12,453 bases of DNA from a virus. Lineage: Duplodnaviria; Heunggongvirae; Uroviricota; Caudoviricetes. The stretch lies in the IMG/VR virus record IMGVR_UViG_2548876944_000018, one strand, 5' to 3'. Positions 1,750-11,002 of the stretch are shown here, in pieces (positions within the stretch are counted from its first letter, which is position 1; every line of letters starts with the position of its first letter). The notes beneath the pieces are model-generated. The model was not told the DNA's origin and made no database searches. It saw nothing but the letters and a program-made list of their open reading frames with translations. The position numbers were made by a program, and so were the translations under genes.

Positions 1750-2520
1750 ATGCAAAAATTCCATTACGTTTATCACACCACTATTAAATCTAATCGCTCT
1801 GGTAAAATCTATCATTACGTCGGAAAAAGAACAACCACAAATCTAGACGATGGATATGTGGGATCGGGTAAAGTTATTAAAATGATGAAGCGTAAAAATA
1901 AAGAATCAGAAACCCCGATATATGAATTTGAAGTTGTTCGTTCAAAATTGTTTGATACTGCCGAGGAAGCGTTTGAATGTGAAATCCTGTTAGTGGAGGC
2001 AGCACGCGAAAAATGGGGGCGTGGTGTATGTCTTAATATAGCTCCTGGTGGTGTCGGTGGTTTTGATGGTGGTGAAAATCATCCTTTTTACGGAAGAAAA
2101 CATACACCGGAATCTAGAGCTAAAATGTCGGCATCTCGAATGGGTGAAAAGAACCATCGCTATGGTAAACCTAGTGCAATGAGAGGCAAAAAAGTAACAA
2201 ACCCAGAAATATTAGCTAAATTATCGGCTGCTACTCGTGGAGAGAATAACCCCCGTTATGGTAAACCTGTATCAGAAGAAACACGCGAAAAGATTAGAAA
2301 AGCACATCTAGGGCGCAAGCGACCAGAAAGCTCTACCAAGAAATATACACATTCTATACGTATTGCTAAAGGTCAAGGCTGTTGGCAGCATTACGATGAA
2401 ATCCGGCGCGTGTGGATTGAAAACGGTAAACCCGGCGCGGTTAAATTGAGTCAAATCATGGTTAGCTTAGGCCATCCAAAATACAACCTTCGTAGAATGT
2501 ACGAAGACTTCAAGAAATAA
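1750..2520 (+). CDS. GIY-YIG family homing endonuclease with three NUMOD3 repeats (Seg / I-TevI-like), 256 aa
   Basis: N-terminal HYVY...YHYVGKRT (GIY-YIG-like module), FECEIL (compare FECSIL in I-TevI as recalled) and LNIAPGG (conserved Asn region). Three NUMOD3-type repeats follow: NHPFYGRKHTPESRAKMS, NHRYGKPSAMRGKK and NNPRYGKPVSEETREKIRKAH, then a basic C-terminal tail. The gene is visibly more AT-rich than the flanking tail genes. Confidence 0.85.
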   Translation: MQKFHYVYHTTIKSNRSGKIYHYVGKRTTTNLDDGYVGSGKVIKMMKRKNKESETPIYEFEVVRSKLFDTAEEAFECEILLVEAAREKWGRGVCLNIAPGGVGGFDGGENHPFYGRKHTPESRAKMSASRMGEKNHRYGKPSAMRGKKVTNPEILAKLSAATRGENNPRYGKPVSEETREKIRKAHLGRKRPESSTKKYTHSIRIAKGQGCWQHYDEIRRVWIENGKPGAVKLSQIMVSLGHPKYNLRRMYEDFKK

Positions 2521-2566: not shown

Positions 2567-2986
2567 ATGCTAAAAACTAGGCTTATCACCGATTACATCA
2601 ATTCTTTAATAGGTCAGGAGTTCGTTCAAGGCGAGAATGATTGCAATATAATTGCATGTAAGATCATCGATATTCTCGCTGGTACTGACCTATATAATTC
2701 TCTTTATAAAAAATATTCAACGAAAGAAGAAGGCTTGAAAATCTGCAAAGAATTAAGCGGATACACAAATATCCTTCAACCAATTAAGAAACATTTCAAA
2801 CTAGTCACTGATGATTTACAGGACGGCGACTTACTGGTCACAGCCCACAAATTAGGAAACCGCAAATATTATTCCGTAGTTCCTCATTATTCCGGTTATG
2901 GCCTCGTTGAAGAAGATGGTATCTGGATGACCATTCCTGTTTCAGACATTGACTATGAACAAGTTTATAGATTCGGGGGTGAATAA
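2567..2986 (+). CDS. Tail assembly/tail tip protein (gpK position), possibly NlpC/P60-like, about 139 aa
   Basis: The track ORF starts at 2552, but the ATG at 2567 has GGAGGT 7 nt upstream. Its stop overlaps the J-like ATG (TAATG at 2984-2988). It contains a DC dipeptide (GENDCNII) and downstream His residues, loosely reminiscent of a Cys-His peptidase. The call is mostly positional. Confidence 0.5.
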   Translation: MLKTRLITDYINSLIGQEFVQGENDCNIIACKIIDILAGTDLYNSLYKKYSTKEEGLKICKELSGYTNILQPIKKHFKLVTDDLQDGDLLVTAHKLGNRKYYSVVPHYSGYGLVEEDGIWMTIPVSDIDYEQVYRFGGE

Positions 2987-5900
2987 TGGGATTTGAAATA
3001 TTAGTAGGCGCGGTTATTGCTGGTGCGTCTGCTGGGATGGCTGCTGCTGCAACATTTTCTGTTATGACCGCAGTCGCTATCGGTATGGCTGCTGGTGCAA
3101 TGACCTTGATCGCTTCCACTGTAGGCGCACCAAAAACACCGAAAGTACAAAGCTCAGATAATGCGGTGACACTAGGAACATCAAACGATCCGAAAGCGGT
3201 GATACCAGTCGTTTTCGGTACTACCCGCACTGGCACAAACTGTGTTTACAAAGCAGTTTCTAAGCAAGAAAACAATAAGCTAGTGCAAATCTTCTCTGTA
3301 GCCGAGGGTGAAATCGACCATTACAAAGCACTCTTTATTGATAATAAAAACGTTCTCATTAGCCAGAATATGACAATTCGTGATGGCATTCTCGATAAAG
3401 GAAACATTAAAGACGAATACCGCAAAGTGTTAGAAGTCGAGTTTCGCACTGGTAAAAATCCTAACACTGCATTGGATCTGGCTAAACATCATTTGGGCGC
3501 AGATTGGGATGATCGGTATCAGGGTAACGGCATTGCGACCATGTGTATTGTGTTACGTCGTGACGATAAATCTTTGGCTGCTGGTGTTGATATCCTTCAA
3601 CCAAATAGCCAAGTGGCAGTCGATGTTATGGGCTTAAAAATCCGTAACCTCGAAACCAATGCTATTGAGGCAAGCACTAACGGCGTGGACCAGATTTTCC
3701 ATTATCTGACAAATACAAAGTATGGTCTTAGTGTACCGATTGAAAATATTAACGTTGATTCATTCCTGAAAGTGCGTAAACAAGTACGCCAGATGGACCT
3801 ACATTCCAACGGTGCATGTGATCCGAACGCCAGCTTTAAAGAGAACTTGACCAGTCTTATGCAGACTTTCGGCGGGGTAATGTTCGAATCCTTCGGAAGA
3901 ATTACCCTGAAACTGGATGCTCCTGATATTGTTAAGCATACCTTCAATGAAGACAATATCATGATGGGTAAGGTATCACTGAAAACAGGTGGCACTAACG
4001 GTTATTTCAATACCATTAACGCGATGTATCAAGAACCATCAATCGACTATTCAGAGCAAATGCTACGTTATCCGGCTGATGCTGAAAACGATGCTACTAT
4101 TCGTCAAGATGGTCGAATTATCGCTAAAGATATTGAATATCGTTTTGTTAAGTCTAAAGCCCAGATTGATAAACTAGCGAGTGTAGAACGAAATAAATCT
4201 CGTATCACTCAGGTTATCAGCTTTATGACTACTGACGCATTCACTGCCGAAGTGTGGGATGTTATTAGCGTTACCTATGATGAATTGAAACTGAATAATT
4301 CACTTTGGCGCATTACTGCAATTGATCGTTCTATTGATTCTGGTATTGCTGGGATGATGACTATCACCGCTACAGAATATAATTCTCAGGTTTATACTGA
4401 CCTGAACTATGCGGCGACTCCAGACAATAGACCTACTGGTTTACCGGATTCAATGACAGTACAGAAGCCTACTAATTTCAGAATTAAGGCAACTGGTGAG
4501 ACAATCCACGGTAAAAACGTAACTTTGACATGGGATGCACCGGAAGATTTCAACCGTTATGGTTTCCAGATTGATTATCGTGTGAGTGGATCACCTAACT
4601 GGATTAAGCTGGGACAGACTTCACAGCAAATTTTCAATATCAATGCACTGGCAAAAGATCGCTCCTACGATTACCGCGTTTGTGCTTTCGGTATTATTGC
4701 TCGTTCCGAATGGGTGGAACTGGTTAACCAGAATCCTACTGTTACCTATGAATTGCCTACGCCAGTGATCCGCATCAAAAATCAGGGTAGTTCACCTGGT
4801 ACTTTCGAAGGCAATGATCTGATTATCGAATGGGAAAATCAGCAACAATTAGATGTGATGATCAACGGTGAAGCTAACAAGTTTAGTGACCTGTTTGAAG
4901 CATACATTATCAAGGTAACTAACAAGGCTGGTAAGTCTATTCAGTACCGTACCCGCGATCCTGAATCATGGACTTATACGCTTGATATGAACCAGTTTAA
5001 CGGCCTTTCGCGTCAATTGACGGTAGAAGTATCCGTTAAGGGCTATAACAACTCAGAGAGCGCCCCAGCGCGTTTAGTGGCTATCAACCCACAACATAAG
5101 CCGATGAAAGGTTTTAGTGCGCGTGGTGGCTTTAATACTGCGTTTGTTAGCTGGGCGGATGACGTAGAACATGACTATGCAGGGTCAATCATTCAGTATG
5201 CAACCGATAACACTTTCTCCGATGCAAGGGCAGTGACTACCAATAGCGTTAGTCATACTTCCTTTGATTTGGCTGACGGTGATTATTATATCCGTGGTGC
5301 TCACTATGATATTTTCGGTATGGATGATGCTGTTTGGTCCGAACCGTATTTCATGCAAATGAAATCTACCATTAGCTGGGACGATCAGGACAAAGAAGCA
5401 CTGGAAGACCTGATCGGTTTACAAGATCGATTAGATGAAACTATCGCGGATGCTATTAAGCAAGCTGGCGCTAATGCCGATGCTAAAATTGATGCAATGC
5501 ATAAACAGATTACTACCGAGACAGGGCAGACGGTCCAAGCCTCAGCCGATACTCTCAAGAGTCTGATTGCTACCAGTGAGCAAGCCAGCGCAACTAAGAT
5601 TGATCAGGTTAAAGCTGAACTGAAAGGCGATATCACCAAAGAAGTTAGCGCATCCGCTACTACCCTGAAACAAGCAATTGCTACCAGTGAGGCAGCAAGC
5701 GCAAGTAAGATTGATCAAGTTCGGGTAGAAATGGATGGCAAGATTGCTGGTGTGAATCAGGAAGCAGATGTAAAAATCGATGCTTTGAAGGGAACCATTA
5801 ACAGCAAATATAATCTGGCAGTTAATGCAGATGGTCGCGTGGCTGGTATTCATATGAGCGCAACCAATGATCCGGCAGAACCGACAAGAATCATCTTTAC

Positions 5901-6732
5901 GGCTGATAAAATCGCGGTAGCTCCACAAGACGGATCCGAAGTTTGTCCGTTTGGCATCGAAGATAACAAAGTTTATCTTGATAATGCGATGATTCGTAAT
6001 GCTGCAATTGGCACAGCCCAGATTAGTGATGCGGCTATTACCACGGCTAAGATCGGCACAGCCCAGATTAACGGCGCTCACATCCAACACGCACAGATCG
6101 GAACGGGTCATATCATTGATGGCTCTATCGATAATGCTAAAATTGGTAACTATATCCAGTCTTATAACTGGAATGGTAACGATGGATGGTATATCGGCAA
6201 AGATGGCACTTGTCATTTTAGACACGCTAATATTCGTGGTCATTTGGTGGCTGATTCCGGCGAAATGAACAACGTAACGATTAATTCAAGTTGCCGCATT
6301 TTGGGTATGCTTGATGCTAATCAGGTGCGTGGTGACTTCGTGAAAGTGGTTGGTAGGAGTTTCCCACATCGTCAACCAAACTGGCCTGATGGTGCAATCA
6401 CTGTAAGGGTCGAAGATGATCATCCATTCGATCGCCAAATAGTGATTCCAGCGATTCATCATAACGGGTCTGTTCGTCGTGGCGAAAGTAGCGATCATTG
6501 GGATACTTGCCGACTAATCGTTAAGAAAAATGGTGGTGTTCTATATGATCGCACTGCAACTTCTGGCTGTATGTACAGTGGAGTTATTGACATGCCAGCC
6601 GGACACGGGGCAGTAACAATGACTTTTGAAGTTTACTGTAAGGGCGTTAACAACTATAACCCAAGTGCATATATCAGCGATCTAACGGTAATGGTAACTA
6701 AGAAAGCCGCTACTGGTATTTCTGTTTCTTAA
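2986..6732 (+). CDS. J: Host specificity protein J-like central tail fiber / tail tip protein, 1248 aa
   Basis: A 3.7-kb ORF at the end of the tail operon with a GGGGG Shine-Dalgarno. The middle contains fibronectin-III-like segments (for example NVTLTWDAPEDF...YDYRVCAFG). The C-terminal ~130 aa contain DDHPFDRQIV, VIDMPAG and MVTKKAATGISVS, which closely match the lambda gpJ C-terminal receptor-binding region as I recall it (DDHPFDRQIV, IVDMPAG, MVIKKQALGISVV). Confidence 0.9.
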   Translation: MGFEILVGAVIAGASAGMAAAATFSVMTAVAIGMAAGAMTLIASTVGAPKTPKVQSSDNAVTLGTSNDPKAVIPVVFGTTRTGTNCVYKAVSKQENNKLVQIFSVAEGEIDHYKALFIDNKNVLISQNMTIRDGILDKGNIKDEYRKVLEVEFRTGKNPNTALDLAKHHLGADWDDRYQGNGIATMCIVLRRDDKSLAAGVDILQPNSQVAVDVMGLKIRNLETNAIEASTNGVDQIFHYLTNTKYGLSVPIENINVDSFLKVRKQVRQMDLHSNGACDPNASFKENLTSLMQTFGGVMFESFGRITLKLDAPDIVKHTFNEDNIMMGKVSLKTGGTNGYFNTINAMYQEPSIDYSEQMLRYPADAENDATIRQDGRIIAKDIEYRFVKSKAQIDKLASVERNKSRITQVISFMTTDAFTAEVWDVISVTYDELKLNNSLWRITAIDRSIDSGIAGMMTITATEYNSQVYTDLNYAATPDNRPTGLPDSMTVQKPTNFRIKATGETIHGKNVTLTWDAPEDFNRYGFQIDYRVSGSPNWIKLGQTSQQIFNINALAKDRSYDYRVCAFGIIARSEWVELVNQNPTVTYELPTPVIRIKNQGSSPGTFEGNDLIIEWENQQQLDVMINGEANKFSDLFEAYIIKVTNKAGKSIQYRTRDPESWTYTLDMNQFNGLSRQLTVEVSVKGYNNSESAPARLVAINPQHKPMKGFSARGGFNTAFVSWADDVEHDYAGSIIQYATDNTFSDARAVTTNSVSHTSFDLADGDYYIRGAHYDIFGMDDAVWSEPYFMQMKSTISWDDQDKEALEDLIGLQDRLDETIADAIKQAGANADAKIDAMHKQITTETGQTVQASADTLKSLIATSEQASATKIDQVKAELKGDITKEVSASATTLKQAIATSEAASASKIDQVRVEMDGKIAGVNQEADVKIDALKGTINSKYNLAVNADGRVAGIHMSATNDPAEPTRIIFTADKIAVAPQDGSEVCPFGIEDNKVYLDNAMIRNAAIGTAQISDAAITTAKIGTAQINGAHIQHAQIGTGHIIDGSIDNAKIGNYIQSYNWNGNDGWYIGKDGTCHFRHANIRGHLVADSGEMNNVTINSSCRILGMLDANQVRGDFVKVVGRSFPHRQPNWPDGAITVRVEDDHPFDRQIVIPAIHHNGSVRRGESSDHWDTCRLIVKKNGGVLYDRTATSGCMYSGVIDMPAGHGAVTMTFEVYCKGVNNYNPSAYISDLTVMVTKKAATGISVS
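5539..5760 (+). repeat. Imperfect tandem duplication of about 111 bp (37 codons) inside the J-like gene
   Basis: ATTGCTACCAGTGAG occurs at 5566-5580 and 5677-5691, and AAGATTGATCA(G/A)GTT at 5596-5610 and 5707-5721, both with a 111-nt offset. The peptide units are ASADTLKSLIATSEQASATKIDQVKAELKGDITKE and VSASATTLKQAIATSEAASASKIDQVRVEMDGKIAG. Confidence 0.75.
6001..6150 (+). repeat. Ten consecutive pentapeptide repeats (A-x-I-x-x) inside the J-like gene
   Basis: Translation reads AAIGT AQISD AAITT AKIGT AQING AHIQH AQIGT GHIID GSIDN AKIGN, with Ile at a strict 5-residue period. GGCACAGCCCAGATTA is repeated at 6010-6025 and 6055-6070. Confidence 0.7.
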
Positions 6733-6750
6733 AATTTAATTCTAATAATT

Positions 6751-6792
6751 AATCCCGCTTAATTCTTTTGAGTTAGGCGGGATTATTTTTAT
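6751..6792 (+). terminator. Rho-independent terminator after the J-like gene
   Basis: AATCCCGCTTAA (6751-6762) pairs with TTAGGCGGGATT (6773-6784): an 8-bp GC-rich stem plus 3 bp with one mismatch, around a 10-nt loop, followed by ATTTTTAT. Confidence 0.7.
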
Positions 6793-6837
6793 CTAAATAA
6801 TTCTGCCATTAAATTATATAAAAATATCGGGGGCGTA

Positions 6838-7116
6838 ATGACTGAAATTATATATGGCGGTATCGGTGTTATCGCCTTAATTTGTGGTGGGCTTTGGAGA
6901 CTTCACCGAAATCAATTAGCCACAGAAAATAGATTGTCGAAATTGGAATCCAGCGACGCATTGTTAAACCAGAAGTTTGAGACGATGCAGAATAACCATA
7001 CTCAGATTGCTGAACGTGTTTACCAAATGGAACAAACACTACACGGTATAGAGAAGAAAGTGGTTGCGATGGACGCCAAATTTGACCAAGTTCTCGACAT
7101 ACTCAAACAAAAATAA
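6838..7116 (+). CDS. Membrane-anchored coiled-coil protein, 92 aa (possible lysis or exclusion protein, holin/spanin-like)
   Basis: ATG with GGGGG 6 nt upstream. It has an N-terminal hydrophobic helix (IIYGGIGVIALICGGLW) followed by about 70 aa of charged, heptad-like sequence. No homolog was recognised. Confidence 0.6.
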   Translation: MTEIIYGGIGVIALICGGLWRLHRNQLATENRLSKLESSDALLNQKFETMQNNHTQIAERVYQMEQTLHGIEKKVVAMDAKFDQVLDILKQK

Positions 7117-7134: not shown

Positions 7135-7305
7135 ATGAAGAATAAACTTAAGAAATATTTTGGTTATCTCTTGATTGTCGCCCTCACTTATAACGTAGCT
7201 ATTAGACCTCTGCTAACGTCCTTTGGGCTTGAACTCCCGGCTATGACCGTGGATGAACAATTGCTAAGGACACTGGCGGGGGGCTTTTCGTTATTAGGGG
7301 GCTAA
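7135..7305 (+). CDS. Small membrane protein, 56 aa (not in the supplied ORF track)
   Basis: My own translation gives MKNKLKKYFGYLLIVALTYNVAIRPLLTSFGLELPAMTVDEQLLRTLAGGFSLLGG. GGGGTG lies 6 nt upstream of the ATG, and the ORF exactly fills the gap between neighbouring genes (TAA at 7303-7305, next ATG at 7307). It has a basic N-terminus followed by one hydrophobic helix. Confidence 0.5.
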   Translation: MKNKLKKYFGYLLIVALTYNVAIRPLLTSFGLELPAMTVDEQLLRTLAGGFSLLGG

Positions 7306-7306
7306 C

Positions 7307-7990
7307 ATGGCAACCAGTACCAATAAACGAAACGCTCTAAGGACAAAGAAAGCGTTACGCCAATGGACTGATAAAGCAACCGATACATTCGAAAGGGCGA
7401 TAGGTGAAGGGGCGATCTTTGCTGCTCGTGCACTCCAGAAGAAGATTAACAAGAATGTTGATAGACCTACTCGATGGACTCAGCAAGCTGTAGGTAATAC
7501 CAACTACAAGAACCGATCAGGGACGAGACACCAAATCTTCATCAAGGGCGCAAGGGATAAGGACAAGAAGATCGGCAGTCAGGATGACTATCTGAAACAC
7601 TATTTCGATGGTGGCAAAATCAATAAGCTAGTGCCAATCGCCAACGGCAAGGTCTTAGACTCCCACGGGAACATTAAGGCCATTAAAGGCGGTAAGATGA
7701 TGCGTAACATCGAAAACGGCAACTTCATCAAGGTAGAGAACAAGGAAGGGACTTTTATCATGAAGAAGTACAAGCCTAAGAAATCCCGAACCAAACGCGC
7801 TAAGAATGGATCGGCGGTGGCAAAACGTCGCTTAGAGAAACGCATCCAGAAACAGAGTAAGCGAATTGTTGCCGTTAAGTCGGATAAAATTTCTACTCGT
7901 TATTCGACGCTAGGATCGTGGGAAAGCAACGAGGAAATGATGCTTAAGAACATTAATAAGCACATTAAATCGCGCATGAGATACGTTTAA
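7307..7990 (+). CDS. Highly basic (Lys/Arg-rich) hypothetical protein, 227 aa
   Basis: ATG with GGGGG upstream, tightly packed with its neighbours. Basic residues are abundant throughout, especially KKYKPKKSRTKRAKNGSAVAKRRLEKRIQKQSKR near the C-terminus. No catalytic motif was recognised. Confidence 0.7.
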   Translation: MATSTNKRNALRTKKALRQWTDKATDTFERAIGEGAIFAARALQKKINKNVDRPTRWTQQAVGNTNYKNRSGTRHQIFIKGARDKDKKIGSQDDYLKHYFDGGKINKLVPIANGKVLDSHGNIKAIKGGKMMRNIENGNFIKVENKEGTFIMKKYKPKKSRTKRAKNGSAVAKRRLEKRIQKQSKRIVAVKSDKISTRYSTLGSWESNEEMMLKNINKHIKSRMRYV

Positions 7991-8028: not shown

Positions 8029-8376
8029 ATGGCTAAAAATATTTTCACTGAATTTCCTACTTATCCGGTCGATCAGCTTTCCGGTATTTTTATTAATGGC
8101 ATTAGCCCAGAATCAATGACCTATGATTTTGAGGCGAAGAGAGTTAAACATAAACAATATAAAGAATGTATCCGCGATCATGAAAAAGGGACCGTGTTTT
8201 GTGTCGCTACATTGGCTAAACGTCCTAAATATCGTTTTCGTGTAGGGCAAGAAGTTGATGTGGTTAATCCTTATAGCTTTAACTGTCTGGGCGATGCACG
8301 CGCGGTGTGTGTAGGTACTGCTCCTTATTACATCAAGGGTATGCGCTTTATTGGTTATATCTTCGAAATGATCTAA
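8029..8376 (+). CDS. Hypothetical protein, 115 aa
   Basis: ATG with TGGGGG upstream; the Shine-Dalgarno lies in the 3' arm of a short hairpin (CCCTCATA / TATGGGGG with one G-U pair). No motif was recognised. Confidence 0.65.
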   Translation: MAKNIFTEFPTYPVDQLSGIFINGISPESMTYDFEAKRVKHKQYKECIRDHEKGTVFCVATLAKRPKYRFRVGQEVDVVNPYSFNCLGDARAVCVGTAPYYIKGMRFIGYIFEMI

Positions 8377-8385
8377 GGGGGTAAT

Positions 8386-8739
8386 ATGTTAAGCAAACAT
8401 TTTTCTCGCAAGGAATTTAAATGTAAATGCGGAAAATGTGATTATGATACAATCGACGCTGAATTACTGGTAATTCTTGAGGATGTACGAGAGCACTTCG
8501 GGAAGCCAGTAATTATTAACAGTGGGAACCGTTGTCCGACTCATAATAAGAATGTTGGCGGCGCAACCAATAGCTATCATGTTCGAGGCCGTGCGGCTGA
8601 CATTGTTATCAAGGGTGTCTCACCTGATATTGTTCATGCTTATCTTGATGGGAAATATCCTACTCAATACGGCTTAGGAAAATATAAAACATTTACGCAT
8701 ATCGATTCCAGATCAAAAAAATCACGGTGGAATGGATAA
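8386..8739 (+). CDS. Peptidase M15 family (DD-/LD-peptidase fold) cell-wall hydrolase, probable endolysin, 117 aa
   Basis: AGGGGG Shine-Dalgarno. FSRKEF...INSGNRCPTHNKNVGGATNSYHVRGRAADI matches the conserved SG(Y/N)R...HN...GG...S.H..G.A.D core of small phage M15-type peptidases. A CKCGKC cysteine cluster lies near the N-terminus. Confidence 0.8.
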   Translation: MLSKHFSRKEFKCKCGKCDYDTIDAELLVILEDVREHFGKPVIINSGNRCPTHNKNVGGATNSYHVRGRAADIVIKGVSPDIVHAYLDGKYPTQYGLGKYKTFTHIDSRSKKSRWNG

Positions 8740-8929
8740 AACAAAAGCGCCTCTGGTGGGCGCTTTTTTGTTAGAATATGCTGGCGACGTTAGCTATATT
8801 TCTGACCATTTTTTCATTATAGACAAATATACCGCAGACGATAAAGTCGTTTTTGACGAAGTAGATCCGTCTCTGGTTGAAGTAATGAAAGAACCGGAAG
8901 ACCTAGAGCTTGATTTAAGCCAATTATAG
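8732..8929 (+). CDS. Doubtful small acidic ORF, 65 aa
   Basis: The ATG overlaps the last 8 nt of the M15 gene and the frame reads straight through the terminator hairpin. No properly spaced Shine-Dalgarno is present (GGTGGA ends 1 nt before the ATG). The C-terminus is strongly acidic (EVMKEPEDLELDLSQL). Confidence 0.2.
   Translation: MDKTKAPLVGAFLLEYAGDVSYISDHFFIIDKYTADDKVVFDEVDPSLVEVMKEPEDLELDLSQL
8743..8770 (+). terminator. Rho-independent terminator at the end of the plus-strand block
   Basis: Perfect 9-bp stem AAAAGCGCC (8743-8751) / GGCGCTTTT (8759-8767) with a 7-nt loop, followed by a T6 run. The upstream A tract makes it potentially bidirectional. Confidence 0.8.
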
Positions 8930-8953
8930 ACTCTCTAACGCAATTAAATTAAA

Positions 8954-8975
8954 AAGGGGTACGGATGTACCCCTT
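8954..8975 (-). terminator. Stem-loop terminating the minus-strand block (perfect 9-bp palindrome)
   Basis: AAGGGGTAC (8954-8962), loop GGAT, GTACCCCTT (8967-8975). On the minus strand it is followed by TTTTTAATTTAATT. It lies 37 bp downstream of the last minus-strand gene. Confidence 0.6.
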
Positions 8976-9011
8976 AAAGCGTTTGGTTCGTTATACGGCG
9001 ATTTAGGCCGC

Positions 9012-9269
9012 CTATGATTTATTTTCTTGTTCTATGAAAATCTTTCTCACCTCATCAGAATAAATGTCTAGTGATTCCTCATAACATTTTCTGTATTCAT
9101 CGTAATTACTGGTGGTCTTTTGACATAGCAATTTCAATGTCTTATGTGCTCCATCAATGAAAGCATCTTTTCTATAGGTTAGCGGTCTACGCATTTCTTG
9201 GTCTACGGTTGCCAATGCCAAGCAAGAATTCATAGATAAAATCAAACCTAAAATCTTAATCATCTTCAT
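9012..9269 (-). CDS. Small secreted protein with a signal peptide, about 85 aa
   Basis: The track start at 9284 is TTG. The first ATG (9269) gives MKMIKILGLILSMNSCLALA followed by TVDQ, a typical signal peptide with an A-x-A site. The mature part has two Cys residues. The ATG lies 4 nt after the recombinase stop. The region is AT-rich. Confidence 0.6.
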   Translation of the reverse strand: MKMIKILGLILSMNSCLALATVDQEMRRPLTYRKDAFIDGAHKTLKLLCQKTTSNYDEYRKCYEESLDIYSDEVRKIFIEQENKS

Positions 9270-9273
9270 TAGC

Positions 9274-10953
9274 TTAAATTCCAAATTCTTGTAATGGACC
9301 TGGTATTTCTTCTTCTGGTTTCCAGTTCTTATCTGTCAGCATGTCTAAACATGGATGCAGAACAAGCCCGTTACTCTCCAGAATCTGCCTATCATTGATA
9401 GTCTTCAAATCAACGAAGATCCGGCCTTTCCTCGGTCCTCTTGAATTTTCTATTACAACTCTCTGGGTCTTGCCATCGATGTATTCCAGTACAAACAAGT
9501 TTTTGTACTTGTCAATCCTGCTACACCCGATCCGTTTTAGAGCTTGCTTAATCTTAAACCGGACCTTAATGCGATCCTCGTTGTAAACATCTTCTAAATC
9601 AAATTCTGCGAGCTTCTCCCAGCCTTGAGAGTCAACAGAATACATTTCCTCTTCTGCCATCTTAAGTTGATTGTAGAGTGTTTCACGCTCGCTATTGAGG
9701 GTAGTAATCTGATCGGCTAGCTCCTTCGTTGCTCCTGTCATAGCAGAAAGGGTAATCAGGTTATCAATCTTGCGTGATATTTCATCAATCTGTACTTTCA
9801 AAGCCGGAACCGGATTAGCCTTATCTTCAGCAATCCAGATTTTATCAGCCAGCAATTGCAATACAGCTTTCTCTAATTGGTCGCCGCGAAAACTCCAGTT
9901 TGTATGCACACATTCAATACGACTAGAGCGCATTGCATCGCATGAATAACGATATTGGTTAGGCCGTCTGTTTGTTCCTTTCACCTTAACCATAGCGGAA
10001 CCGCAATGTTCACATTTCAATAGACCAACACCACTAAGCAAGGGAATAGGTTTAGCTTCTTCTTTGTCTCCAAAGTTACATGCTCTAACACCAATGCTTT
10101 TCTTAAGGTGATAAAACTCAGCGTCATCTAGCACACGAGGATAATAATCCTTTAACTCATACTTAACGCCATCTACAGAGATTTCCTTGATACCAATCAA
10201 AGCGCGGGTATGGAACAACCTTTCAATCATTGCCCGTGACCAGTTTGAATGCCTCTTGTGACTTGCGGCTGGTGGTGGTGTGTATGTCGCGTTAAGGTGA
10301 TCCAGTATCTCGGCGGTTGACCGTCCATTCCTGCGTAATTCCACAACTTCCTGAACAATAGGGAAGAAGACCGGATGAGGAAGCACATAACCAGATGTGG
10401 TATCAGTCCACCACATATTCTTTCCAATTTCCTCGATTGCAACAGCCGGATTTTGTGGATTTTCTTGATGAGCTTTAATCTTAATCAGTGCGCTTGAGTT
10501 AGTACGATTGCGCTTAGTCTGGCTTTCCTCATTACCACGGATGAATAAAAGGATGGAGAACATCAGGTCCATCGGGTTAGCGGTAACAGTATCAAGCGAG
10601 TAGATCTTGTTATCCATGCCAGTAACAATGGTTATCCCCCTACGGATGATTGAAAGGAATAACTCCTGCGCACTGACAATATCGGCACGGGATAAACGGT
10701 CCAAGTTTTCGATGAATAGCCAGCTACCAACAGGAACGGATCTACCTATTGCATCAAGGAAACGAGATAGCGCCCCTGTTTTGGAGTTAGCACCCTTAAA
10801 CGCAGATACACCCAGATCCTGATAATCATTTACCAGTTCAAGGTCATACTTTACCGCAATCTCTCTAGCCATCCTGATTTGTCGTTCATAACTCGAACCA
10901 TCATTCTGACGCATAGACGAGAAGCGAATATACGAATACAGTTTAGTTTTCAT
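9274..10953 (-). CDS. Large serine recombinase (serine integrase family), about 559 aa
   Basis: N-terminal resolvase-type catalytic motif YSYIRFSSMRQ...SYERQ with the nucleophile Ser near residue 10. A Cys-rich zinc-ribbon segment (CEHCGSAM...YRYSCDAMRSSRIECVH) and a coiled-coil region (ALKVQIDEISRKIDNLITL...) follow. The track start is TTG at 10968; the ATG at 10953 is preferred. Confidence 0.9.
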   Translation of the reverse strand: MKTKLYSYIRFSSMRQNDGSSYERQIRMAREIAVKYDLELVNDYQDLGVSAFKGANSKTGALSRFLDAIGRSVPVGSWLFIENLDRLSRADIVSAQELFLSIIRRGITIVTGMDNKIYSLDTVTANPMDLMFSILLFIRGNEESQTKRNRTNSSALIKIKAHQENPQNPAVAIEEIGKNMWWTDTTSGYVLPHPVFFPIVQEVVELRRNGRSTAEILDHLNATYTPPPAASHKRHSNWSRAMIERLFHTRALIGIKEISVDGVKYELKDYYPRVLDDAEFYHLKKSIGVRACNFGDKEEAKPIPLLSGVGLLKCEHCGSAMVKVKGTNRRPNQYRYSCDAMRSSRIECVHTNWSFRGDQLEKAVLQLLADKIWIAEDKANPVPALKVQIDEISRKIDNLITLSAMTGATKELADQITTLNSERETLYNQLKMAEEEMYSVDSQGWEKLAEFDLEDVYNEDRIKVRFKIKQALKRIGCSRIDKYKNLFVLEYIDGKTQRVVIENSRGPRKGRIFVDLKTINDRQILESNGLVLHPCLDMLTDKNWKPEEEIPGPLQEFGI

Positions 10954-10960
10954 ACCATTT

Positions 10961-11002
10961 CCAAACAAAAACGCCCCTACCGCGTATTATAACGATAGGG
11001 GC
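10961..11002 (-). terminator. Rho-independent terminator immediately upstream of the recombinase gene, with TATAAT in its loop
   Basis: On the minus strand: GCCCCTA(T)CG, loop TTATAATACG, CG(G)TAGGGGC, then GTTTTTGTTTGG. The T tract ends about 8 nt before the recombinase ATG. Confidence 0.6.

Follow-up and report, generated by a model that had tools for sequence, protein, structure and literature searches.

A lambda gpJ-family receptor-binding domain, probably exchanged as a cassette, at the end of an Escherichia coli prophage tail-tip protein

When the end of a tail fibre resembles that of phage lambda, does the likeness also tell which receptor is bound, and how the fibre came by its end? 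The question is raised by a 12,453-nucleotide stretch of DNA from a tailed virus (Caudoviricetes; IMG/VR record IMGVR_UViG_2548876944_000018), here called the window in its full length. The longest open reading frame (ORF) in the window, 2986-6732 on the plus strand, encodes a J-like protein of 1248 residues. In positions 6337-6732 of this gene the initial annotation saw a close likeness to the C-terminus of lambda gpJ, a module recombined from a lambda-type source, and the sign of a maltoporin-like receptor. Our own reading, in which we have good though not full confidence, is that 6337-6732 encodes the Ig_GpJ_C receptor-binding domain (RBD) of the trimeric central fibre of a non-lambdoid, serine-recombinase, siphovirus-type E. 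coli prophage, that the domain is an exchangeable cassette, and that its receptor belongs to the porin class. The gene and its recognizable domains are as follows.

2986..6732, plus strand: gene for the 1248-residue J-like tail-tip (central tail fibre) protein, from the ORF and its translation.
5776..6066, plus strand: Phage_Tail_Tip domain (PF09327/DUF1983; Pfam, E 8.8e-19), residues 931-1027, the end of the alpha-helical shaft and the start of the beta-prism.
6379..6729, plus strand: match to PF12421 (Ig_GpJ_C), an Ig-like beta-sandwich receptor-binding domain, residues 1132-1248, from Pfam, AlphaFold2 and Foldseek.

Translation of 6337-6732 gives FVKVVGRSFPHRQPNWPDGAITVRVEDDHPFDRQIVIPAIHH...SGVIDMPAGHG...LTVMVTKKAATGISVS*, the last 131 residues of the protein (1118-1248) and the stop codon. 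The three motifs that drew attention to the block are located there as described: DDHPFDRQIV at residues 1144-1153 (nucleotides 6415-6444), VIDMPAG at residues 1200-1206 (nucleotides 6583-6603) and the terminal MVTKKAATGISVS at residues 1236-1248 (nucleotides 6691-6729). The match to PF12421 (tip attachment protein J, C-terminal receptor binding domain) scores 119.4 bits against a gathering cut-off of 26.2 (E 1.5e-34), covers profile positions 17-135 of 135 and runs up to the stop codon. PF09327 followed by PF12421 at the extreme C-terminus is the domain order of the gpJ family. PHROGs places the 1248-residue protein in tail fiber families, and identical or near-identical E. coli genes carry the annotation 'phage tail tip protein'; Phage-tail_3 (PF13550) and fn3 give only sub-threshold Pfam signals. 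A sequence search of the Protein Data Bank (PDB) finds, over residues 1068-1248, A8 gpJ (9wca, E 3.6e-44) and lambda gpJ (8xcj, 2.6e-34; 8iyk, 3.7e-33) and, over residues 842-1017, several tail tip fibres, among them that of the F2 pyocin and a J-like gp24. Residues 1060-1248 were modelled with AlphaFold2 as a monomer from a 30-sequence alignment; the model has a mean predicted local distance difference test score of 82.2 and is all-beta from residue 1118 onward. Its best four Foldseek matches in the PDB (E 7e-17 to 8e-16, template modelling (TM) score 0.64-0.70) are the closed A8 fibre (9wca), the closed lambda fibre (8xck), A8 with OmpC (9wcb) and lambda gpJ713 with LamB (8xcj), and the fifth is much weaker (E 2e-4). 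Residues 1118-1248 genuinely belong to the lambda gpJ receptor-binding domain family, and a chance match is excluded.

With the lambda gpJ RBD (8XCK, closed; 8XCJ, with LamB) the block has in common not only the Pfam family and the predicted Ig-like fold but also the place at the extreme C-terminus, after Phage_Tail_Tip and beta-prism, and a framework consisting of GDxVK, DDHPFDRQI, CxLxVxxNG, (V/I)DMPAGxG and KKxxxGIS(V/I). The best solved structure, both by sequence and by fold (E 7.1e-17), is the A8 gpJ chimera (9WCA; 9WCB with OmpC G17 of E. coli EDL933), in which an engineered lambda backbone carries a prophage-derived C-terminus. It is 43-46% identical to the block, and in it the same fold engages OmpC as well as LamB.

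How close, then, is the block to lambda itself? BLASTP aligns residues 1118-1247 with residues 997-1131 of lambda gpJ (NC_001416, 15505-18903) at 55 of 135 positions identical (41%, E 1e-27), above the 30 percent that the initial annotation had named as the level below which the likeness would fail. The rest of the protein was expected to be far more divergent, and it is: in the whole-protein comparison with lambda J, significance is reached by 1073-1247 alone (lambda 952-1131; 41%, E 2e-34), and the remaining segments have E >4. The similarity begins 45 residues before 1118, with 19 of the 45 residues of 1073-1117 identical (lambda 952-996). A tblastn search of 50,697 phage genomes with the 131 residues finds 243 records, those listed being nearly all lambdoid by record name. 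The top matches (55.6%) are J proteins of O157 Shiga toxin (Stx)-converting and PPompW prophages, including VT1-Sakai; phage 21 (phi21) follows at 46.3%, and lambda, at 41.0%, is near the bottom. In an alignment of 95 unique C-termini the lambda domain has ~41% identity with those of the window, VT1-Sakai and A8 alike, and the window domain is 55% identical to that of VT1-Sakai and 43% to that of A8. The close resemblance to lambda has therefore to be given up, and the 'almost motif for motif' match describes the conserved framework but not the domain as a whole, which is only 41% identical. Judged by these identities, lambda is one of the more distant relatives of the block within the gpJ RBD family.

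The closest relative in the phage database is J of VT1-Sakai and the O157 Stx-prophages, the 1A2 donor type (Brodel et al. 2024, Nature 632:877). It belongs to the same family, has the junction motif GDLVK, and keeps its identity of 55% over 176 residues when the junction is included (BLASTP, residues 1073-1248, E 9e-57), with 24 of 45 residues identical in 1073-1117. However, VT1-Sakai J is lambdoid in the full sense, its gene being preceded by L, K and I and followed by lom; it binds OmpC of the EDL933 type, and its loop blocks are different. Within the sampled set, identity between a lambdoid RBD and an RBD of the prophage family to which the window belongs never exceeds 57%; nothing thus points to a lambda-type phage as a recent donor, nor can a direction of transfer be inferred.

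The protein that carries the block is of another kind. Escherichia phage DCP80 encodes a hypothetical protein (XNX25186; PQ671644) to which residues 29-1119 are 38% identical (E 0), and which is the sole phage-database protein that covers the backbone. The domain order is the same, but the similarity ends at GDFV in the window protein and GDIV in DCP80, whose last ~130 residues are unrelated and have no Pfam family. More distantly, the N-terminal part is related to tail proteins from Vibrio, Pelagibacter and Providencia phages. Lambda gpJ has the same four variable blocks in its RBD, but ~1070 upstream residues of the window protein lack BLASTP similarity to it and the neighbourhood is not lambda-like. 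Upstream of the gene lies the end of a tape-measure gene, with genes for a distal tail protein resembling pb9, a hub resembling phiJL001 gp84, a homing endonuclease (NUMOD3) and a protein with DUF6950; on the downstream side there are four ORFs, small or without assigned function, an M15 peptidase endolysin gene and then, on the minus strand, a large serine recombinase gene. In comparison with lambda and VT1-Sakai, this differs from the M-L-K-I-J-lom-stf order of lambda. The tail-tip backbone is thus non-lambdoid, and the protein is not a full-length lambdoid gpJ orthologue.

Two observations on the backbone may be added. The protein starts with a hydrophobic Ala/Gly-rich stretch of ~45 residues (residues 1-45, window 2986-3120; MGFEILVGAVIAGASAGMAAAATFSVMTAVAIGMAAGAMTLIAST...) that is conserved in the E. 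coli, Providencia and Salmonella alleles and recognizable in DCP80, with nothing like it in lambda J; it may be a membrane-active or tube-lumen segment. The DCP80 record (L003 in our set) is filed as Straboviridae/Tevenvirinae/Gaprivervirus, yet it encodes this 1252-residue J-like tail-tip protein of siphovirus type among mostly 'hypothetical' genes, and either its taxonomy label or its assembly may be at fault.

By what route did an RBD of the gpJ family come to its present form on such a backbone? Megablast of the whole window against the 50,697 phage genomes gives only a 42-bp match and no sequenced phage relative, and relatives were therefore drawn from bacterial genomes and from Logan/ENA contigs. 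An E. coli PEC41 prophage served as the sister locus for a DNA identity profile. Nucleotide identity between the two is 99.2% over 5500-6330, 59.1% over 6331-6700, 96.9% over 6701-6732 and 97.2% over the next 1.6 kb. It is 100% over the conserved segment to nucleotide 6346; mismatches set in at 6347, in the codon that follows GDFVK, and the last of the dense ones is at 6696. The fall from 100% to about 40-60% takes place inside one 30-nucleotide sliding-window step, and the recovery is equally sharp. At third codon positions identity is 97.5% just upstream of the block and 44.5% within it. Since saturated synonymous divergence is limited to a 350-nucleotide block with sharp edges, the profile speaks for import of a diverged allele, not for local mutation. 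The profile divides the end of the gene into three parts.

6202..6345, plus strand: conserved junction segment, residues 1073-1120, ending in GDFVK (nucleotides 6331-6345), common to lambdoid J proteins and DCP80.
6346..6696, plus strand: putative exchangeable receptor-binding cassette, codons 1121-1237, from the identity steps against PEC41.
6697..6732, plus strand: conserved C-terminal tail TKKAATGISVS and stop codon, from the identity to PEC41 and the K-K-x-x-x-G-I motif.

That codons 1121-1237 are a cassette exchanged by recombination between related prophages is a well supported reading of these sequences. The junction segment ending in GDFVK would be its 5' homology arm, and the C-terminal tail, whose K-K-x-x-x-G-I motif is close to invariant in 30 homologues, would together with the downstream intergenic DNA be its 3' homology arm. 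The start first proposed for the module (residue 1118, nucleotide 6337) lies no more than three codons from the mapped junction. Of the proposal that the module had been recombined from a lambda-type source, the first half stands, as an exchanged cassette, and the second half, a recent donor of lambda type, finds no support.

The alleles of the protein tell the same story from another side. There are ~300 full-protein homologues in a large protein database. Those of E. coli are 77-98% identical and 1211-1260 residues long; for one allele from Providencia and a block of alleles from Salmonella the match extends over just 91% of the length, and these have no PF12421. Allele P0090 is 97-100% identical to the window protein in residues 1-1117 and 57% in 1118-1248. 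Allele P0151 is 86-87% identical in 1-800, 100% in 1021-1117 and 98% in 1118-1248. Other alleles change type independently in 801-940 (shaft), 1021-1117 (distal prism) and 1118-1248 (RBD), and Salmonella allele P0187 retains 13% identity in the last block. RBD type is thus uncoupled from backbone type across alleles. The prophage family has at least five Ig_GpJ_C clusters at 75% identity, and the window RBD is a cluster of its own, at most 58% identical to any other. In the Salmonella relatives and in DCP80, unrelated C-termini begin at the same junction, and these alternative C-termini have no Pfam family. In Logan contig L004, identity to the window is 95-100% downstream of the gene and 62-75% across 5920-6580, as if the distal prism segment and the RBD had both been replaced there. 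Sharing of the domain with lambdoid phages is either old or by way of unsampled intermediates, and the shuffling within the family is recent. A neighbour-joining tree of 33 representative RBDs places most of those of the family side by side, and a small number of lambdoid ones, on long branches, fall among them; the tree carries no support values and hence allows no conclusion on single versus multiple acquisitions.

The shaft is polymorphic in length as well. At window ~5560-5680 (residues ~860-898), allele P0089 (1211 residues) is without 37 residues that sit between the imperfect repeats LIATSEQASATKIDQV... and AIATSEAASASKIDQV..., and other alleles have a different shaft type, 56-58% identical in 801-940. 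Tandem Repeats Finder detects no repeat in the gene, so the 37-residue polymorphism is not a simple DNA tandem array.

A precedent for such behaviour is the 'specificity region' of lambdoid J proteins, the C-terminal ~170 residues, which evolve and recombine independently and have indel-rich hotspots (Maddamsetti et al. 2018, Evolution 72:2234; PMC6646904). The window family behaves like that region, with mapped breakpoints, but the backbone is from a different tail-tip lineage. Unlike in lambdoid J, moreover, the module alternates at the same junction with unrelated C-termini outside Ig_GpJ_C (Salmonella, DCP80).

What do the differences within the cassette imply for specificity? Column entropy was computed over 89 unique Ig_GpJ_C C-termini and compared with the published hotspots of lambda J, namely 1012, 1048-49, 1077-78 and 1107, which are indel-rich; 1012 and 1107 are critical for the shift to OmpF in experiments (PMC6646904). 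Four high-entropy blocks coincide with these positions.

6367..6390, plus strand: variable block 1, residues 1128-1135 (HRQPNWPD), at lambda hotspot ~1012, from entropy and alignment.
6454..6507, plus strand: variable block 2, residues 1157-1174 (IHHNGSVRRGESSDHWDT), at lambda hotspot 1048-1049, from entropy and alignment.
6553..6582, plus strand: variable block 3, residues 1190-1199 (TATSGCMYSG), at lambda hotspot 1077-1078, with an indel relative to lambda.
6634..6672, plus strand: variable block 4, residues 1217-1229 (YCKGVNNYNPSAY), at lambda hotspot 1107, with an adjacent indel.

Lambda S1012 aligns with a gap, V1048/S1049 with G1166/E1167 at an entropy peak, and D1107 with N1223; indels relative to lambda occur at three of the four hotspots. 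In the lambda-LamB structure, four bottom loops of the RBD insert into the receptor (PMC11101478). The text of that paper gives no residue numbers for them, and we infer that they are the four variable blocks. DDHPFDRQIV, VIDMPAG and the C-terminal motif fall in the low-entropy framework between the blocks. With the motifs in the framework and the hotspots diverged, the motif match reveals the fold and not the specificity. Identity to lambda, Sakai and A8 in strand versus non-strand residues (DSSP) did not separate framework from loops (38-58% in both), because DSSP strands take in variable edge strands.

Members of the family are known to differ in receptor. Lambda gpJ binds LamB (8xcj; PMC11101478), and lambda gains OmpF through four mutations (PMC6646904). 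Phage 21 natively uses LamB; one J mutation adds OmpC, and OmpF is then gained (PMC11336670). In chimeras A8 and 1A2, prophage-derived gpJ C-termini were spliced at lambda residue 964, which re-targeted lambda particles from LamB to OmpC; they use OmpC independently of LamB (PMC11338833). The A8 gpJ-OmpC complex is itself among the Foldseek matches (9wcb). The 1A2 DNA, machine-read from the supplement of that paper, is by frameshift-tolerant alignment identical to the VT1-Sakai J C-terminus at 143 of 150 residues, and all discrepancies are at reading-error sites. Since 1A2 is of the VT1-Sakai type, the closest characterized relative of the window block (~55%) is an OmpC binder. A literature search gave no usable receptor assignments for the ECOR-derived lambdoid phages (PhiR series).

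By analogy with these cases, a trimeric outer-membrane porin as receptor is a reasonable inference. At 41-55% identity and with divergent loops, no particular porin is assignable from sequence, OmpC being at least as likely as LamB. The initial prediction of a maltoporin-like receptor thus loses its footing: members of the fold bind LamB or OmpC, the nearest is an OmpC binder, and the hotspots have diverged from lambda. As a matter of judgement, an OmpC-type receptor is the leading candidate, though short of an even chance; OmpF or another porin comes second, and LamB ranks third, level with a non-porin outer-membrane protein or the need for a co-receptor.

The mechanism we propose follows the solved lambda and A8 gpJ fibres. 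By homology with these, three copies of the Ig-like beta-sandwich would form the fibre tip, and the four variable loops of each copy would insert into the extracellular mouth of a trimeric porin, most likely one of the OmpC/LamB/OmpF class. Binding would then spread the RBD bases, twist the beta-prism above them and open the tail tip for DNA ejection. The cassette, codons 1121-1237, would be swapped by homologous recombination through the arm ending in GDFVK on one side and KKAATGISVS with the downstream DNA on the other.

Two alternatives survive best, and we hold each of them to be unlikely. The first is a recent gain, from a lambdoid phage, of a LamB-binding module of lambda type, with maltoporin as the receptor. 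The LamB-binding domain of lambda does belong to the same family, and LamB-using phi21 is as close to the block (46.3%) as is the OmpC binder A8. However, lambda is near the bottom of the homologues found, the closest characterized RBD, that of 1A2, uses OmpC and works without LamB, and in the window protein S1012 of lambda is lost to a gap, D1107 is replaced by N1223 and three of the four hotspots bear indels. Nor is a recent donor visible among the sampled lambdoid RBDs, at no more than 57% identity.

The second, to which we give the same modest weight, is that the cassette requires a co-receptor or has as its target an outer-membrane protein other than those of the OmpC/OmpF/LamB group. The RBD cluster of the window stands apart from the others (at most 58%), its loop blocks are unlike those of every characterized member, and Gifsy-1 J is reported to bind OmpC, OmpX and BtuB (PMC12312913). 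The Gifsy-1 paper, however, gives only 18% identity to lambda in the C-terminal region (PMC12312913). Trimeric porins are used by all characterized Ig_GpJ_C domains, and the three-fold geometry of the RBD fits a trimeric receptor (PMC11101478).

A third alternative concerns the genes that follow J on the plus strand, which lie between it and the M15 endolysin gene and are without assigned function.

6838-7116, plus strand: ORF of 92 residues.
7135-7305, plus strand: ORF of 56 residues.
7307-7990, plus strand: ORF of 227 residues.
8029-8376, plus strand: ORF of 115 residues.

With these genes in place, the J C-terminus could be a mere adaptor and the true receptor-binding protein be encoded downstream, as in Drexlerviridae, where FhuA-, BtuB-, LptD- or YncD-specific proteins are encoded after gpJ (bioRxiv 10.64898/2026.04.02.716166). 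We regard this as very improbable. The downstream ORFs are 95-100% identical in relatives with other J cassettes and do not co-vary with the variable element. None of the four matches a tail family in Pfam or PHROGs. The 92-residue protein has an N-terminal transmembrane segment and a coiled coil, and the 56-residue protein one transmembrane segment; in two of the ORFs a single N-terminal hydrophobic segment, near the endolysin gene, suggests lysis functions. The 227-residue protein is highly basic, and neither it nor the 115-residue protein has a family match. In lambda and A8, finally, it is the Ig_GpJ_C domain itself that touches the porin. As an observation apart, some of the four may be holin- or spanin-like lysis proteins.

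Weakest of all is the view that the divergence from the sister prophage arose in place, by point mutation under diversifying selection: the specificity regions of lambda J do evolve fast under selection and the variation is clustered in the four loop blocks, but identity drops and recovers sharply at the block edges, synonymous sites are saturated inside the block only (44.5% versus 97.5%), and one RBD type is found on backbones whose identity to the window protein is 86% in one case and 100% in another.

Returning to an exchanged, porin-directed Ig_GpJ_C tip, four points weigh against this reading. The AlphaFold2 monomer reaches a TM-score of only 0.65 to the solved fibres, with a root-mean-square deviation of ~6 A, which is due to the poor placement of the extended N-terminal part of the modelled fragment. 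Recombination is deduced from pairwise identity profiles rather than from a formal breakpoint test over all alleles. The receptor mechanism is carried over by analogy from homologues that are 41-55% identical. And four small or function-unassigned ORFs do stand between the J gene and the endolysin gene.

The element that carries the gene is a resident of E. coli. The 1.2 kb of nucleotides 5700-6900 are 99.9% identical to a chromosomal region of E. coli PK8568, beside ydcR and a truncated hicB. The same prophage type is present in 55 of 5426 complete E. coli genomes (~1%), and identical downstream genes are found in many Logan/ENA/NCBI contigs. Two further genes of the window are of interest for the mobility of the element and of its parts.

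1750-2520, plus strand: gene for a 256-residue NUMOD3 protein (PHROG 'homing endonuclease'), between the hub-like and DUF6950 genes.
9274-10968, minus strand: large serine recombinase gene (Resolvase, Recombinase and Zn_ribbon_recom domains), which marks the prophage end.

In PK8568 the element abuts the truncated hicB (L015 26794-26910), and it appears to have integrated into this antitoxin gene. In contig L010 other chromosomal genes (the csgG/F/E side) come after the same prophage end, an arrangement that points to either a rearrangement or a second site of insertion. The homing endonuclease gene is present in most related loci (L005, L008-L010, L012-L014) and absent in L006, L007 and L011, where the flanking genes are adjacent; it looks like a mobile presence/absence polymorphism within the tail-tip operon. 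Contig L004 (2688-6171, against window 8376-10968) has the module from the J tip to the endolysin in common with the window at 94-100% identity. Ahead of its endolysin gene is an additional ORF of 345 residues (faint DUF723), and where the window has the serine recombinase gene it has one for a UvsW-like helicase; the tail-tip/lysis module is thus common to a differently organized phage. Outside the window, the same prophage encodes a 1176-residue 'tail fiber domain-containing protein' between head and tail-tube genes (L015 6509-10039), and the virion may have a second host-recognition fibre besides the J-like tip.

Much of the background to these results is established: the domain family, its role and its modular evolution in lambdoid phages are known, and public databases already assign PF12421 to the protein. 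What is new is, first, a natural cassette exchange that can be cleanly mapped, with putative breakpoints at nucleotides ~6346 and ~6696; second, a receptor-binding tip of the lambda family on a non-lambdoid tail-tip backbone, in an unstudied but fairly common E. coli prophage; and third, the alternation of this tip with unrelated C-terminal modules at one joint. The practical warning is that family-level motif matches to lambda gpJ tell the fold and not the receptor. For engineering, the natural junction, GDIVK at residues 995-999 in lambda, is ~30 residues downstream of the splice at 964 that has been used, and this nearness makes the cassettes plausible ready-made parts for changing host range. 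We put forward, as a tentative view that may well prove wrong, that Ig_GpJ_C is a portable tip on a non-lambdoid chassis, interchangeable at a fixed GDxVK joint with at least five types of its own and with unrelated folds, and that the type in the window perhaps has a specificity not yet described. If this is true, the engineering of lambda-like delivery particles could draw on the family as a natural library of compatible receptor-binding cartridges.

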